In this document: positions 11,787 to 17,490 of the stretch, piece after piece | Numbering within the stretch: the first letter of the stretch is position 1 | How the letters are laid out: every line of letters begins with the position of its first letter | Assembly (NCBI GenBank): GCA_964543175.1 | Contig: CAZIWS010000003.1 | Span: 1-26,370 of the forward strand | Origin: an uncultured Candidatus Saccharibacteria bacterium | Lineage (GTDB): Bacteria; Patescibacteriota; Minisyncoccia; Phycocordibacterales; UBA9973 | Length of the DNA: 26,370 nt | Direction of reading: 5' to 3' | The notes under the pieces: model-generated | Database searches by the model: none | What the model was told of the DNA's origin: nothing | What the model saw: only the letters and a program-made list of their open reading frames with translations | Program-made: the position numbers and the translations under genes

Positions 11787-12671
11787 TTACTTATTAAATA
11801 AATTATTGCTAAAAGCAAATTTATATCCCAAGCCATCCATGGTTATTTTCAACATACCTAATTGATCTGTTCGAAATAATTGGACATTAAAATCAAATAA
11901 CAAATCCAAGACCTCTTGATGAGGGTGACCATAATTATTATTAAAACCACTTGAAATTAAAGCATATTGAGGGTCAACAGCTTGCAAAAAGTCTCTTGAG
12001 GTTGAACTACGAGAGCCATGGTGTCCTATTTTTAAAATATCATTTTTTAATTTTTCAGAAGAATAATTAGCTAAAAGAATTTTTTCAGTTTTAGAGGTGG
12101 CATCACCCGTTAAAAGAATTGAGTTATTTTTATAAAAAAGCCGAGCAACTAAAGAACCATCATTTCTATCCCAACTTAAAACATCTTGATTAGGGAAAAG
12201 AATTTCAATAAAAACTTCATTTCCTAAATCTAAAATCATTCCTTTTTTAGCTAAAATATTAGGAATATTTTCTTTTTCTATTTCTTTTTTTAAGTTTTGA
12301 TATGTTTGAGAACTATTAGTAGTGCCAGGCTCTAAAATAATTCCCACTGAATAATTTTTTAAAATTTCAGAGAGCCCTCCAATATGGTCTTGGTCGGGAT
12401 TAGTAATAATAATTGCATCTAAGCTTCGATCAAAAGTAGGCATAATTCTAGAAAGCTGATTAATAATTTTTCTATTAGGGCCCGAGTCAACTAAAACTTG
12501 AATACCTGAAGAACTTTGAATTAAAAAAGCGTCTCCCTGTCCAACATCTAACATACTAAAAGTTACTTGGCGGTGAGAATTTAAATAATCAATTCTAAAA
12601 AGAATCAAATTAAAAATCACTAAAAATATACATATAAAAACTAAATAAAGTTTTTTATAATTCTTAAGCAT
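11787..12671 (-). CDS. comEC: ComEC/Rec2-type metallo-beta-lactamase-fold protein (stand-alone C-terminal domain) with N-terminal membrane anchor
   Basis: MLDVGQGDAFLI, VLVDSGP, ITNPDQDHIGG, NDGSLV, ILLTGDA, KIGHHGS, ISSGFNNNYGHPH, RTDQLG. Confidence 0.9.
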   Translation of the reverse strand: MLKNYKKLYLVFICIFLVIFNLILFRIDYLNSHRQVTFSMLDVGQGDAFLIQSSSGIQVLVDSGPNRKIINQLSRIMPTFDRSLDAIIITNPDQDHIGGLSEILKNYSVGIILEPGTTNSSQTYQNLKKEIEKENIPNILAKKGMILDLGNEVFIEILFPNQDVLSWDRNDGSLVARLFYKNNSILLTGDATSKTEKILLANYSSEKLKNDILKIGHHGSRSSTSRDFLQAVDPQYALISSGFNNNYGHPHQEVLDLLFDFNVQLFRTDQLGMLKITMDGLGYKFAFSNNLFNK

Positions 12672-12679
12672 GCTATAAT
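12671..12679 (+). promoter_or_regulatory. Extended -10 promoter for sod (leaderless)
   Basis: TGC-TATAAT, 6 nt before the ATG at 12686. Confidence 0.7.
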
Positions 12680-12686
12680 TTTAACA
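12678..12686 (-). promoter_or_regulatory. Extended -10 promoter for the comEC-MBL gene (leaderless)
   Basis: TGT-TAAAAT (12686->12678), 6 nt before the ATG at 12671. Confidence 0.6.
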
Positions 12687-13282
12687 TGGAAACATTTACT
12701 CAAAAAACATTTAATTTAAAAAACTTAAAAAATATTTCTCAAAAAAATATTGAAGAACATTTAAAACTTTATGAAGGTTACGTAAAAAATACAAATTTAA
12801 TTTTAGAAAAAATAAATCAATTAAATAAAGACCCTATTGATAATGCTTATTTAATTAATGAAATGCATAGACGTTTTTCTTTTGAATTTAATGGGATGCG
12901 CAATCATGAATATTATTTTTCTTCTTTAGAAAATAATTTTCAGGAATTAGAGGAAAATTCAGAATTAAAAAAATTAATAATAAAAGAATTTAATAGTTTT
13001 GAAAATTGGCTAACTATTTTTAAAAAATTAGCTTTAATTCGAGGAATTGGCTGGATAATGCTTTCCTATGATAAAAAAACAAATAAGCTTTTAAATCACT
13101 GGGTAGATGAACAACATTTAGGTCATCTTATGTCCACAAAACCAATTATTTGTCTTGATATGTGGGAACATGCTTATTTAACAGATTATTCACCAGCAGA
13201 AAAAAATAAATATGTGGAAGCATTTTTTGAAAATTTAAACTGGCAAGAAATAGAAAAAAATTTTAAAGAAGCTCTAAAATAA
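12686..13282 (+). CDS. sod: Fe/Mn superoxide dismutase
   Basis: Metal ligands in EEHLKLYEGYV, FNGMRNHEYYF and DMWEHAYLTDY; GIGWIML. Metal specificity cannot be determined. Confidence 0.95.
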   Translation: METFTQKTFNLKNLKNISQKNIEEHLKLYEGYVKNTNLILEKINQLNKDPIDNAYLINEMHRRFSFEFNGMRNHEYYFSSLENNFQELEENSELKKLIIKEFNSFENWLTIFKKLALIRGIGWIMLSYDKKTNKLLNHWVDEQHLGHLMSTKPIICLDMWEHAYLTDYSPAEKNKYVEAFFENLNWQEIEKNFKEALK

Positions 13283-13284
13283 AA

Positions 13285-14751
13285 TTAGTTTTTAAAGAAA
13301 TTTTTAATTTCTTCTTTAAAAAGAAAATAAATAAAATAAATATAAATTAAAATTGTAATTAAAAGTGGAAAATTTGGTATTGCAAAAGAAGCAAAAGATA
13401 ATTGAGAGAAAAATTTTACAATTAATAATTGATAATGAAGAAAAAGATAAGCTAAAAAACTAAAAGGGATAGATAATAAATGCCACAGAAAGCCCAATAT
13501 GCCTGACAAAAATCCCAAAAGCATTGAAATAGGAATAAAAGGAATAATTAAAACATTAGCCGGCAAAGCAACCAAAGAAAGATTGCCCATTTTGTATAAA
13601 ATAAAAGGCATTACAAAAATATAAGCAGAAAAAGTAACAGAAGCAATGTCTCTTAAATTAAAAAAAGAAGGAAGCCATAAAAAATATTTTTCAAGCTTAG
13701 GAGAAAGAAAAATAACTGCTAGGGTGGCCATAAAAGATAACTGAAAAGAAACATCAAATGCTAAAATAAAAGGATTTAAAAAAATCATTAAAATGGCAAC
13801 AATAACTAAAGCTCGAGCAGTATCATAATTTCTACCAGTTGCTCGGGCAAAAAGCATTAAGATAGCCATAAATCCTGCCCGAATAGCCGTTGCTTTTCCG
13901 CCAGTCATTAAAACAAAAAGAAAAATAGAAAAAATAGCTAAATAAATACCTAAAACATTAGGTAAAAAATAAAAAAGTTTCATAATCCATTCAGCAATAA
14001 TGGTAACATTATAGCCAGACAAAGCAACAATATGAATTGTTCCTGTATCAATAAAACTTTGACGTAATGATTCATTAAAAGAAGCTCTTTCCCCTAAAAT
14101 TAAACCGCCCAATAAAAGACTTTCCGGATGAGGAATAGTTAAATCAATTTTTTCTAAAAATTTATTTTTTATCAAAAACAAAAAAGATTTTAAATGATTT
14201 CCATTATTAGAAGAAATAATTTCAATTTGAGGGTAATTAATTAAATACAAAATACCATCTTTTTTTAAATAATTAATATAATCAAAAAATTTACCTTGCT
14301 CAGTATAAAAATTTTCTACTTTTTTTATTTTACCAGAAACAGAAATTAAATCTCCATACTTAAAATCTTGAATAAAATCGGTAGAAATTAAAATTTTTAA
14401 TTTTTGATTTAAAACTTGAATAGTTAATTTTTGATTATTTTCTCTAATTTCTACTTCATCAACAATAATGCCTGATAAAACAACTTCTTGGTTATTAGAA
14501 AAAATATAAAAATTATTAATATTTTTATTTTTAATATCAAGTCTTAGGTAGCCCAAAACCATCATTAAAATAAAAAAACAGAAAACGATTCCCCATTTAT
14601 TTTTATTTTCCTGTAAAAAAAAGAAAAATAAAATAAAAAAAGATAAAAATCCTATCAATAATAAAAAATAAATATTAAAAGAAAAAAAAGACCTAAATAA
14701 AATTCCTACAAAAAAGCCAAAAGAAATTGAATAAAAAATTTTATCTTTCAT
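13285..14751 (-). CDS. comEC: ComEC/Rec2 competence membrane protein (OB fold plus Competence domain, no MBL domain)
   Basis: Multi-TM protein with GLILGER, FIDTGTIHIVALSGYNV, AIRAGFM, NPFILAFDVSFQLSFMAT, ALPANVLIIP. Confidence 0.93.
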   Translation of the reverse strand: MKDKIFYSISFGFFVGILFRSFFSFNIYFLLLIGFLSFFILFFFFLQENKNKWGIVFCFFILMMVLGYLRLDIKNKNINNFYIFSNNQEVVLSGIIVDEVEIRENNQKLTIQVLNQKLKILISTDFIQDFKYGDLISVSGKIKKVENFYTEQGKFFDYINYLKKDGILYLINYPQIEIISSNNGNHLKSFLFLIKNKFLEKIDLTIPHPESLLLGGLILGERASFNESLRQSFIDTGTIHIVALSGYNVTIIAEWIMKLFYFLPNVLGIYLAIFSIFLFVLMTGGKATAIRAGFMAILMLFARATGRNYDTARALVIVAILMIFLNPFILAFDVSFQLSFMATLAVIFLSPKLEKYFLWLPSFFNLRDIASVTFSAYIFVMPFILYKMGNLSLVALPANVLIIPFIPISMLLGFLSGILGFLWHLLSIPFSFLAYLFLHYQLLIVKFFSQLSFASFAIPNFPLLITILIYIYFIYFLFKEEIKNFFKN

Positions 14752-14768: not shown

Positions 14769-15281
14769 TTAAAAAAATTTTTGATGGTCTTTTATATCAC
14801 CCACAAAAAGAGGCACTAAATTACCCCCAGCAAAATTGGTGGCAATAAAATCACATCTTTCATTTAAAGCTATACCAGCATGACCTTTTACTTTTATCCA
14901 AACAATTTCATATTTTCTTTTTAAATCAAATTCTAATTTAAAAAGCTCTTCCCATAAATCTTTATTTAAAACTAATTCTTTTGAAGCTGTGCGCCAATTA
15001 TTTTTAATCCAAGAATAAATCCATAAAGTAATACCATTTAATAAATAGCCTGAATCAGTATAAATTAAAATTTTCTTAGCTAGTATTTTTCTTTCTTGAA
15101 TTAACCTTAGTGCTTTTATGGGAGCCATCATTTCCATTCGGTTATTAGTAGATTCTTTTTCTCTTCCTCCTAGTTCAAATACCTTACCTTGAGGAGCACA
15201 AACAACAGCTCCCCAGCCAGCAGGCCCTGGATTTCCTAAAGAACTTCCATCAGTATAAATTATAATTTCATCTTTTTTCAT
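14769..15281 (-). CDS. rnhA: Ribonuclease HI
   Basis: IYTDGSSLGNPGPAGWG, TNNRMEM, YTDSGY, LNKDLW, KVKGHAG, NERCD (D-E-D-D set present). Confidence 0.96.
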   Translation of the reverse strand: MKKDEIIIYTDGSSLGNPGPAGWGAVVCAPQGKVFELGGREKESTNNRMEMMAPIKALRLIQERKILAKKILIYTDSGYLLNGITLWIYSWIKNNWRTASKELVLNKDLWEELFKLEFDLKRKYEIVWIKVKGHAGIALNERCDFIATNFAGGNLVPLFVGDIKDHQKFF

Positions 15282-15290
15282 ATTAATTTA

Positions 15291-15299
15291 ATTATATCA
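15291..15299 (-). promoter_or_regulatory. Putative extended -10 promoter for rnhA
   Basis: TGA-TATAAT, 9 nt before the ATG at 15281. Confidence 0.5.
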
Positions 15300-15307
15300 T
15301 TTTTATT

Positions 15308-17023
15308 TTAAAGAATATCAACAATTCTTAATCTTAATTCTTGCTTGCCACCAAATCTAGAAAGTTCCATCGTGGCGAGTAAATTTACCTTTAAGCCTTC
15401 TTTGATTTTAGTTTCAAATGAATCAACATTCGCAAAAAAAGAAATAGCTTTTATTTTTATATTATTTAAATCACAAAAAATAATTTCTAAGTGTTCTTGA
15501 GAGTTATTTTTGCCAAATTTTCTAATTTTTTCAATGGTCACATTTTCAAAAAGAAATATTGGCTTAGGATTTCCAATACCAAAAGGACTTAATTTTTCTA
15601 TTTCTTGATAATTTTTTAAATTTACTTCTTTAAAAGAAATTGATAAATCAAAATTAATTGGCGAAACAATATCTTTTAAATTATTATTTAAAAAATGTTT
15701 TTTATAAGAATCTATTAATACATCTTGCAAAAGATGAATTTTTTCATGGAAAACACTAAAGCCTCCAGCCAATTCATGCCCACCAAAATCAATAAAACAT
15801 TCTTTATTTTTTGACATAATTTCAACTACTGAAATTTCTCCACTAGACCTACAGGAACCTTTAATTATATTATTTTCATCTTTACCCCAAACAAAAACAG
15901 TTTTTTTATATAAATCAGAAATTTTTCCAGCCACTAAACCCAAAATACCAATTCTCCATTTAGGATTTCCAATTACAATAATTTCTTCTATTTCTCTTTT
16001 TTCAAAAATCTTTTTAACTTCACGCATAATTCCAGCAACTAATAATTTTCGGTCATCATTAATTTTTGATAAATATTTAGATAATTCACTTGCACTAAAC
16101 AAATCCCGAGTAACTAAAAGTTCAAAAGCTTTTTTAGGATCAGCCATTCTAGAAGCAGCATTTAACCTAGGAGCAACCATAAAAGTTATATCATCTTCTG
16201 TTAAATATTTTTGTTCAATTTTCATTTGAGCTAAAAGTTTTACTAAGCCAAGACGACGGCTTTTTCTTAAAACCTTAATTCCAAAACTAGCTAAAGTTCT
16301 ATTTTCACCAGTTAAAGGAACTAAATCAGCTAAAGTTGCCAAGCCAACCATATCTAAAAGCCATTTTTCCCAACCATTATGAATTTTATAAAATTCAGCA
16401 TATTTTTTTAAAAAAGCTTGCATAAATTTAAAAACAACACCAGCGCCACAAAGCATTTTTTCAGGATAATTTATAGCATTTTTAGAAAAATTTTCTACTT
16501 TAGGATTTAAAATTGCATAAGCTTTAGGTAATCTAAGAGAAACAAGCCCTTCTTCGTCAACACTATGAAGGGGTAAGTGATGGTCAGTAATAATAACATC
16601 AATTAGATTTACTTCAGCTTGAGCTACTTCTTGAATAGCACTAATGCCTAAATCAACAGTTATTATTAACTTAACATCTTTTTGTTTAAATTCTTCTATA
16701 GCTGATAAGTTTAAACCATAGCCTTCAGAATTTCTCATGGGGATATAAACTTCGTAATTTTTAAAATTTATCTTTTGAAATAAATCATCAAAAATCACCG
16801 CTCCGGGTATTCCGTCAGAATCATAATCAGCATAAATAATAATTTTTTCTTGCGCTTCTATGGCATTAAAAAGACGCACGCAAGCTTTTTCCATATCAGG
16901 CAATAAAAAAGGATCGTGAAGATCTTTTTGATAATCAGGGTTTAAAAATTTTTCTATTTCTTTTTCTTCAGTAATTCCCCTCTTTAAAAGCAAAATTTTA
17001 ATAAATTCAGAAATTTTTACCAT
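15308..17023 (-). CDS. recJ: Single-stranded-DNA-specific exonuclease RecJ
   Basis: YADYDSDG, YIPMRNSEGYGL, ITDHH, GAGVVFK, LATLADLVPL, APRLNAASRM, KGSCRS, FGGHELAGG, PFGIGNPKP. Confidence 0.96.
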   Translation of the reverse strand: MVKISEFIKILLLKRGITEEKEIEKFLNPDYQKDLHDPFLLPDMEKACVRLFNAIEAQEKIIIYADYDSDGIPGAVIFDDLFQKINFKNYEVYIPMRNSEGYGLNLSAIEEFKQKDVKLIITVDLGISAIQEVAQAEVNLIDVIITDHHLPLHSVDEEGLVSLRLPKAYAILNPKVENFSKNAINYPEKMLCGAGVVFKFMQAFLKKYAEFYKIHNGWEKWLLDMVGLATLADLVPLTGENRTLASFGIKVLRKSRRLGLVKLLAQMKIEQKYLTEDDITFMVAPRLNAASRMADPKKAFELLVTRDLFSASELSKYLSKINDDRKLLVAGIMREVKKIFEKREIEEIIVIGNPKWRIGILGLVAGKISDLYKKTVFVWGKDENNIIKGSCRSSGEISVVEIMSKNKECFIDFGGHELAGGFSVFHEKIHLLQDVLIDSYKKHFLNNNLKDIVSPINFDLSISFKEVNLKNYQEIEKLSPFGIGNPKPIFLFENVTIEKIRKFGKNNSQEHLEIIFCDLNNIKIKAISFFANVDSFETKIKEGLKVNLLATMELSRFGGKQELRLRIVDIL

Positions 17024-17145: not shown

Positions 17146-17445
17146 ATGGCGACAAAAATTTTAGAAGGTGTCAATTTATCCAAAACAAAAAAAATAGCGT
17201 TTTGGGAAAGCATAATAAATAAAAAAGAAATTAAAATAGGCACCTTGATTTATTTTAAAGAAACTAAAGGTCCAATACTCTGCGACTCAGTAGAGGTATC
17301 TAAACAAAAAAAACATCATCTACAAAAACGGCCCTTTATTTCAGGAGTTTTCAAGGGTGAAGAAAATAATTTTAAAAAATTCCTTGGCCATGCATACAAC
17401 CATGGCAAGCTTTCAAAGGAAAAATACATATTTTACATGGAATAA
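17146..17445 (+). CDS. Small basic hypothetical protein (99 aa)
   Basis: Fills an otherwise empty intergenic gap, has a candidate promoter upstream and a clean terminator 6 nt after the stop; no family recognised. Confidence 0.7.
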   Translation: MATKILEGVNLSKTKKIAFWESIINKKEIKIGTLIYFKETKGPILCDSVEVSKQKKHHLQKRPFISGVFKGEENNFKKFLGHAYNHGKLSKEKYIFYME

Positions 17446-17451
17446 ATATCG

Positions 17452-17490
17452 AAAAGCGCCAAAGCATTACCTTGGCGCTTTTTTATTTTT
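17452..17490 (+). terminator. Intrinsic terminator
   Basis: 11-bp inverted repeat aaaagcgccaa (17452-17462) / ttggcgctttt (17472-17482), 9-nt loop, followed by a T-rich tract. Confidence 0.85.

Follow-up and report, generated by a model that had tools for sequence, protein, structure and literature searches.

The 26,370-nt window analysed here, the whole of positions 1 to 26,370 of contig CAZIWS010000003.1 from an uncultured Candidatus Saccharibacteria bacterium, contains a superoxide dismutase (SOD)-like gene, sod, and a gene for the nuclease-domain part of ComEC, comEC-MBL (hereafter MBL), which are transcribed divergently from start codons separated by an intergenic gap of 14 nt. Our analysis indicates that this 14-bp gap and the start codons at its two ends probably form a conserved bidirectional core promoter from which two leaderless mRNAs would be initiated at sites 15 bp apart. 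A sequence-only reading of the window had proposed two overlapping extended -10 promoters at this position, each placed for transcription to start at the A of its ATG, and this proposal is supported by a layout that appears to be dominant in the genome, conserved at the locus, and recurrent between other genes. The elements of the site are as follows.

Positions 12671 to 12679, plus strand: putative extended -10 element of sod, TGCTATAAT, with TG at 12671-12672, 1 nt, the hexamer TATAAT at 12674-12679, and 6 nt before the ATG.
Positions 12678 to 12686, minus strand: putative extended -10 element of MBL, TGTTAAAAT, with TG at 12686-12685, 1 nt, the hexamer TAAAAT at 12683-12678, and 6 nt before the ATG.
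Positions 12686 to 12688, plus strand: start codon of sod, ATG, placed by homologue alignment from residue 1 and by the fixed 6-nt spacing found genome-wide; predicted transcription start at A12686.
Positions 12669 to 12671, minus strand: start codon of MBL (CAT on the plus strand); predicted transcription start opposite T12671.

Both start codons lie inside the 20-bp site at 12669-12688, CATGCTATAATTTTAACATG, which is the tightest gap that would accommodate two leaderless extended -10 promoters at the fixed 6-nt spacing. TGCTATAAT and TGTTAAAAT, both near-consensus, each carry the TG at -15/-14, one base before TAnnnT, that defines an extended -10 element, and a feature of bidirectional promoters, overlapping or adjoining -10 elements on opposite strands with reciprocal key bases, is present in the sod/MBL gap. 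The two opposed hexamers have 2 bp in common (12678-12679), and in both directions T-7 is paired with the A at position 5 of the opposing hexamer. The first T of each TG is base-paired with the A of the opposite start codon, such that T-15 and G-14 of one element pair with A+1 and C-1 of the other. A generalised form of the pattern, CATGNTANNATNNTANCATG, matched once in the window and not at all in 100 shuffles of the window. No Shine-Dalgarno sequence precedes either start. Every descriptive detail of the sequence-only reading, namely the start codons with the TG-n-hexamer-6 nt-ATG layout on each strand, the overlap of the hexamers, the T of each TG opposite a start-codon A, and the lack of a good -35 box or Shine-Dalgarno sequence, was confirmed on the sequence. 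An Rfam scan of the window gave no family match, and folding of the 20-bp dyad as a hairpin or cruciform was unremarkable (-1.3 kcal/mol, z 0.22). A Fur/PerR-type box, considered by eye on account of the TATAAT-like dyad, was rejected, as its right half misfits and the conserved positions are those of the -10 boxes.

That the true start codons might differ had been named as a finding that would speak against the proposal, and both were checked. The sod reading frame has a TAA stop at 12665-12667, seven codons upstream of the ATG, and the MBL frame has a stop three codons upstream of its ATG, with no start codon between stop and ATG in either case. The homologues of both proteins align from residue 1. 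The MBL ATG is the sole start codon ahead of the N-terminal membrane helix, which a later start would delete, and use of the next Met of sod would cost the first metal-binding His. Judged on the upstream in-frame stops and the homologue alignments, both ATGs stand and the two start codons are firm.

The layout at the site was compared with start sites throughout the genome assembly, which comprises 762 kb in 133 contigs, has 29% G+C, and is 96.5% complete. Crude calling of open reading frames (ORFs) of at least 100 aa gave 628 ORFs, and upstream motifs were counted over 626 ORF starts. TGnTAnnnT begins at -15 in 47 of these, versus typically about 2 elsewhere, with 0-5 at most other offsets and shoulders of 10-15 at -18 to -16; both the sod and MBL promoters belong to the 47. 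TANNNT begins at -12 in 111 ORFs, versus about 28 at other offsets, and TA[AT]AAT in 56, versus about 4. The start codon is ATG at 46 of the 47 TGnTAnnnT sites, those of sod and MBL included, and what the sites have in common is limited to a weak TTt at -35 to -33, a spacer rich in T, the box TGnTA(T/A)AAT, and 6 nt rich in A. The -15 motif is concentrated at probable operon-first genes: it was found at 15 of 102 divergent genes and 19 of 196 genes behind long gaps, compared with 5 of 187 behind short same-strand gaps. The fraction of G before ORF starts is 0.06-0.11 at positions -13 to -1, and counts of GGAG, GAGG, and AGGA are near background; this depletion implies that there is no genome-wide Shine-Dalgarno signal. 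Classical -35/-10 pairs were not in excess over shuffles (28 versus 23.5, and 98 versus 101.7). The genome encodes a sigma-70 factor with region 3, the region that contacts the TG (Sigma70_r3 match of 72.5 bits, contig C19), and in the remaining short divergent gaps of the genome (24, 28, and 38 nt) the boxes stand back-to-back. The simplest reading of these patterns is that in this organism transcription of most units begins at the A of the ATG and the mRNAs would be translated without a leader. A fixed spacing of 6 nt is what would be expected if the start site lies at the usual distance of 7 nt from the -10 box.

The core of the site is also conserved. Relatives were recovered by protein search; their labels are Candidatus Paceibacteria or Parcubacteria, among them Nomura-, Taylor-, and Zambryskibacteria. 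A sod homologue is present in 37 of 41, and the order comEC-N (encoding the N-terminal part of ComEC), antisense sod, MBL, and glyA is conserved. When 25 relative loci were oriented and anchored on the MBL start, the core CATGnTAYAATnnTAnCA adjoined this start in about 20 of the 25 genomes. Each of the positions G1, T3, A4, Y5, A6, A7, T8, T11, A12, C14, and A15 is retained in 16-23 of the 25 loci, and positions 2, 9, 10, and 13, which are exactly the n positions of two interlocked TGnTAnnnT boxes, vary freely. The MBL codons beside the core are not conserved at the DNA level in these loci. Relative to the MBL start, TGnTAnnnT is found exactly at -15 in 14 of the 25 and TAnnnT at -12 in 18. 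The plus-strand TGnTAYAAT remains beside the MBL start even where sod is farther off, so that the distance from hexamer to sod is always the gap minus 8 (6, 8, 9, 30, 40, 53, 72, 75, 80, or 107 nt). Since the plus box is anchored to the MBL start at all gap lengths, the conserved unit would be the bidirectional core, with the leaderlessness of sod varying among relatives. In a second sample, which overlaps the first, MBL lies beside sod in 63 of 80 Paceibacteria species-level loci, and a gap of 14 nt is the mode of their spacing, occurring in 11 of the 63 versus at most 4 for any other gap. The full pattern is present in nine of these 11 loci; one differs only at the C, and one is without both TGs.

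Two other forms of the sod/MBL gap were observed. In the relative L012 (G017), the gap of 115 nt holds a perfect inverted repeat of 16 bp, CCGTACATAGCTTTTA ... TAAAAGCTATGTACGG, that flanks a GC-rich core. This points to insertion of a small palindrome immediately downstream of the predicted start site, by which sod would become leadered. Comparable extra DNA lies between the promoter core and the sod ATG in L013, L015, and L009, and the L012 palindrome may be related to palindromic inserts noted earlier in the ileS and glyA genes of the window. A second cluster of gaps is found at 37-43 nt (L059, L061, L067, L072, L073, L123, L125, and others). Here the plus box still abuts the MBL start and a minus-strand box resembling TGTTAATAT lies about 10 nt farther out, which may be another way of interlocking the boxes, one that would leave MBL with a short leader.

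We further found that the arrangement recurs between unrelated genes. A sample of 401 genomes from across the order was searched with patterns for 14-nt and 17-nt gaps that had equal information content. The 20-mer pattern for the 14-nt gap was present in 17 genomes, compared with none for the reversed control, and the pattern for the 17-nt gap, which represents the published 18-bp class, was present in 10, again with none for the control. Two long ORFs starting exactly at both ATGs flank 14 of the 16 foreign matches. The pairs include RmuC/YqeY, PfkB kinase/class II aldolase, PilM/ComF-like, DedA-like/MBL, DprA/SerRS, and another SOD/MBL, and in the ten flanking ORFs searched against Pfam, from six of these pairs, the domains begin at residues 1-6. 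The 14-nt class is thus a recurrent architecture in these sequences and, under this pattern test, at least as common as the classical class. A scan of Candidate Phyla Radiation (CPR) genomes for divergent pairs with 14-nt gaps had been suggested as a check on the proposal, and both this recurrence within the order and the modal gap at the sod/MBL locus support the proposal. Among the 14 genuine 14-nt pairs, natural-competence genes occur in six (L040-L045; comEC-MBL in three, PilM/ComF-like in two, and DprA in one), a share that may reflect the small sample or shared ancestry. In one of these (L040), from a distant family, a canonical-type SOD is paired with MBL over the same 14-nt gap, and the SOD ORF is open for at least 271 aa.

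The translation machinery of the lineage was considered as well. As the assembly is without a 16S gene, three genus relatives were used instead. Their complete 16S genes (L050, L051, and L052) end in GGAATAATTCAATT after helix 45, where GGATCACCTCCTTA would be expected, and CCTCC is found neither there nor in the next 25 nt. These 3' ends indicate that the genus appears to lack the anti-Shine-Dalgarno sequence. Ribosomal protein uL1 (PF00687) was not found in the 96.5%-complete genome. A subgroup of Parcubacteria without the anti-Shine-Dalgarno motif and uL1 has been described (Tsurumaki et al. 2022, PMC9297842). The genus resembles this subgroup in the missing CCTCC of the relatives' 16S genes and in uL1 not being found here; it differs in the predicted leaderless mRNAs and the promoter placement, which that paper does not mention.

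The genes around the site are arranged as follows.

Positions 12686 to 13282, plus strand: sod, encoding a Fe/Mn superoxide dismutase-like protein of 198 aa (Pfam Sod_Fe_C, 7e-24, and a weak Sod_Fe_N; best solved structure 1ma1, 8e-22).
Positions 11787 to 12671, minus strand: comEC-MBL, encoding a stand-alone C-terminal part of ComEC of 294 aa, with one membrane helix and a beta-lactamase-like (nuclease) domain (Pfam Lactamase_B).
Positions 13285 to 14751, minus strand: comEC-N, encoding the N-terminal part of ComEC, 488 aa, with DUF4131 and Competence domains; no promoter motif of its own.
Positions 15291 to 15299, minus strand: TGATATAAT, 9 nt upstream of the RNase H gene (rnhA, 14769 to 15281); probable promoter of rnhA-comEC-N.

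The gene labels given in the sequence-only reading, a SOD and a ComEC nuclease-domain protein, hold according to these Pfam and solved-structure matches. The MBL protein matches the solved ComEC chains 9ic4 and 30bt at 1e-34 to 1e-36, covering residues 517-791 of the 801-aa ComEC. The ComEC domain set of DUF4131, Competence, and Lactamase_B is complete, yet split between two genes, and sod, the lone plus-strand gene within a long minus-strand array, lies antisense between the two halves. This split-comEC/antisense-sod layout is kept across the genus and in several other families of the order. In this putative dismutase, Sod_Fe_N scores 23.2 bits, under the Pfam cut-off of 27; by eye the metal ligand positions (His, His, Asp, His) are kept in EEH, NH, and D..WEH. 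The protein has EEHLKLYEGY where an HHxKHH stretch is usual. In MBL, the ComEC metal motif HPDxDH (THPDADH in the solved ComEC) has become NPDQDH, within ITNPDQDHIGG (region 12360-12380). The same change of the first His to Asn (NPDxDH) is found in most same-genus relatives, and the His is kept in more distant families.

The genes sod and comEC-N converge with 2 nt between their stop codons and no terminator, so that their transcripts should overlap, and transcripts of rnhA-comEC-N from TGATATAAT would probably run antisense through sod toward MBL. No terminator-like site was seen between comEC-N, sod, and MBL, and a search of the 96.5%-complete assembly gave no Rho RNA-binding domain (PF07497); together these make read-through toward MBL and head-on transcription over sod both likely. 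The strongest terminator-like hairpin of the window is on the minus strand at 17452-17482, with a 14-bp stem and 6 G-C pairs, and sits in a 490-nt region between the gene at 15308 to 17023 and small plus-strand ORFs at 17146 and 17514.

In the mechanism that we propose for the bidirectional promoter, a sigma-70-type holoenzyme would bind the site in either orientation without a -35 box, with region 3 contacting the TG. The polymerase would then melt the DNA from -11 to about +2 and start at A12686 or opposite T12671, yielding a leaderless sod mRNA in one direction and a leaderless MBL mRNA in the other. Translation would begin on the 5'-terminal AUG, which fits a lineage without a Shine-Dalgarno signal and without the CCUCC tail of 16S rRNA. 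Since both open complexes would need the same 8 bp (12675-12682), only one polymerase could be accommodated at a time. The ratio of sod to MBL initiation would be set passively by the relative strength of TATAAT and TAAAAT, and real competition would be expected only at high occupancy, giving a passive partition of initiations and not a switch. The MBL promoter probably also allows the distal half of comEC, which lies behind antisense sod, to be expressed anew.

The alternative that survives best is that the promoter acts in one direction, with TGCTATAAT driving sod, MBL expressed through read-through from rnhA-comEC-N, and the minus-strand box a by-product of symmetry. The missing promoter of comEC-N, the lack of a terminator-like site from comEC-N through sod to MBL, and the failure to find Rho all accommodate it. 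Moreover, translation of most genes of the genome begins at internal positions that have no Shine-Dalgarno sequence, so that a leaderless mRNA is not strictly required for MBL. We nevertheless consider it unlikely. The TA at -12/-11 and the TG at -15/-14 of the minus box are conserved (T11 in 19, A12 in 22, C14 in 16, and A15 in 22 of 25 loci), and this conservation holds with sod 24-100 nt away, where the plus promoter places no known constraint on these positions. The other 14-nt pairs of the order are likewise two-sided.

It is highly improbable that both genes are instead transcribed with 5' leaders from promoters inside the opposite coding regions, the boxes in the gap not setting the start sites. 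There is a weak -35/-10 match inside sod on the minus strand (12742-12713, 9/12), and relatives with long gaps must make leadered sod mRNAs. However, the lack of excess of classical -35/-10 matches over shuffles speaks against internal promoters, the sharp peak of the motif at a single offset would scarcely be expected without a start site at a set distance from the ATG, and the core of the gap is better conserved than the flanking coding DNA.

We give very little credence to the view that the 20-bp dyad is mainly the operator of a dimeric regulator, for example of oxidative stress or competence, in a regulated switch. The dyad is near-perfect, and known leaderless switches with overlapping promoters use such proteins (C proteins and QseC; PMC8789080), but the conserved and variable positions match exactly two TGnTAnnnT boxes and their n positions, the pattern recurs between unrelated gene pairs, no regulator gene is linked to it, and the site has no unusual fold (z 0.22). 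Some regulator may still bind here in addition to polymerase. A chance match, for which the 29% G+C and the roughly 25,000 occurrences of TANNNT per strand might be invoked, is negligible given the 0 of 100 window shuffles, the 17 real versus 0 control matches in 401 genomes, the conservation, and the modal 14-nt gap.

Several observations weigh against a bidirectional, doubly leaderless promoter. No good -35 box is present at the gap, and read-through of the unit comprising rnhA and comEC-N might account for most expression of MBL. The distance of sod from the MBL start is 16-115 nt in roughly half of the relatives, so that double leaderlessness is not obligatory. Across the genome, opposed TGnTAnnnT pairs at the 15-bp start-site spacing number 5, versus about 3 expected, and the 18-bp opposed-pair class is likewise without excess; the opposed-box arrangement is special at gene starts and not throughout the genome. 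The relatives are non-independent and the two comparative samples overlap, which makes their counts descriptive only. For this genome the loss of the anti-Shine-Dalgarno sequence is carried over from genus relatives, and searches of sequencing runs for the organism returned only DNA metagenomes (bioreactor, anaerobic digester, landfill, and groundwater), with no RNA run listed.

The sequence-only reading had gone on to describe the region as a regulator-free toggle between SOD and the DNA-uptake nuclease. Its premise, mutually exclusive occupancy by polymerase, follows from the geometry, in which both complexes would need the same 8 bp, and agrees with the account of bidirectional promoters in PMC12825309. 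The toggle itself is not supported, since it would need feedback or memory and none is visible at the locus: we found no regulator gene, operator, or feedback element there, and only the two boxes are conserved. Further points against it are that sod is not leaderless in many relatives and that MBL is reachable by read-through. At bidirectional promoters in E. coli, moreover, competition is negligible at basal activity and arises only upon strong activation (PMC12825309). It is more probable that the minus promoter re-establishes expression of distal comEC, with the ratio of the two RNAs set passively. The site by itself shows no regulatory link between oxidative-stress defence and DNA uptake.

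The components of the arrangement are all known, from bidirectional and extended -10 promoters to leaderless genes and Parcubacteria that have lost the anti-Shine-Dalgarno sequence. Leaderless genes with a -10 box at a fixed distance are also found in Deinococcus and Actinobacteria, and the 'group C' genomes of GeneMarkS-2 reportedly show this organisation too. As in the leaderless layout of Mycobacterium (PMC3898074, PMC4633059), TANNNT lies about 12 nt before the ATG, Shine-Dalgarno sequences are weak or absent, and ATG is strongly preferred; the genome studied here differs in coming from an ultra-small bacterium of the Paceibacteria (CPR), in its mostly extended -10 elements with TG, and in a genus whose 16S rRNA would be without the anti-Shine-Dalgarno sequence altogether. 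Like the extended -10 (TGnTATAAT) promoters of sigma-70 and sigma-A, the site has TG one base before the hexamer and no usable -35 box. The element itself is the same, and the difference is that two copies are interlocked on opposite strands here. In the C protein and QseC/QseM switches (PMC8789080), divergent promoters likewise overlap and one of the two transcripts is leaderless, but these switches are bistable by means of a DNA-binding protein, operators, and feedback, none of which was seen at the sod/MBL locus.

The closest precedent is the class of bidirectional promoters described by Warman, Forrest, Wade, and Grainger (bioRxiv 10.1101/2020.01.31.928960, PMC10268837, PMC12825309), in which divergent starts lie 7-25 bp apart. 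These promoters have shared or overlapping -10 elements with reciprocal key bases, often drive mRNAs, and are used by one polymerase at a time (PMC12825309). In E. coli the preferred spacings are 18 bp, at which -7T pairs with -11A, and also 10, 12, 23, 29, and 7 bp. The 15-bp spacing predicted here falls inside the 7-25-bp definition and is not among the preferred spacings. Its symmetry differs from that of the 18-bp class: two hexamers of full consensus fit together, since the self-complementary AT is all that they have in common, the TG of either box doubles as C(-1)A(+1) on the opposite strand, and leaderless transcripts are predicted in both directions. A literature search found no description of a leaderless promoter layout in CPR, nor of a 15-bp doubly leaderless class or the link of both to the loss of the anti-Shine-Dalgarno motif. 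We tentatively raise the possibility, which we hold to be doubtful, that the 15-bp arrangement of two leaderless, extended -10 promoters is a distinct, selected class of bidirectional promoter in Paceibacteria lacking the anti-Shine-Dalgarno sequence, in which competition for polymerase couples the paired genes, here sod and the distal half of a comEC split by antisense sod.

Should mapping of transcription starts confirm the proposed promoter, the site would be a complete natural unit for expression in two directions, packing into 20 bp a promoter as well as the points at which transcription and translation of both genes begin. Its 15-bp spacing, in which the extended -10 TG and the start site on the opposite strand are reciprocal, belongs to a class outside those described for E. 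coli, and the 20-mer would lend itself to tests as a compact part for two-way expression in synthetic biology. The TGnTAnnnT-N6-ATG rule could be used by gene callers and annotators of Paceibacteria to place start codons and operon boundaries. For the biology of this large uncultured group, the arrangement would link three features that earlier reports treat singly or omit: a lost anti-Shine-Dalgarno sequence, a lack of Shine-Dalgarno motifs, and promoters that stand directly against start codons.

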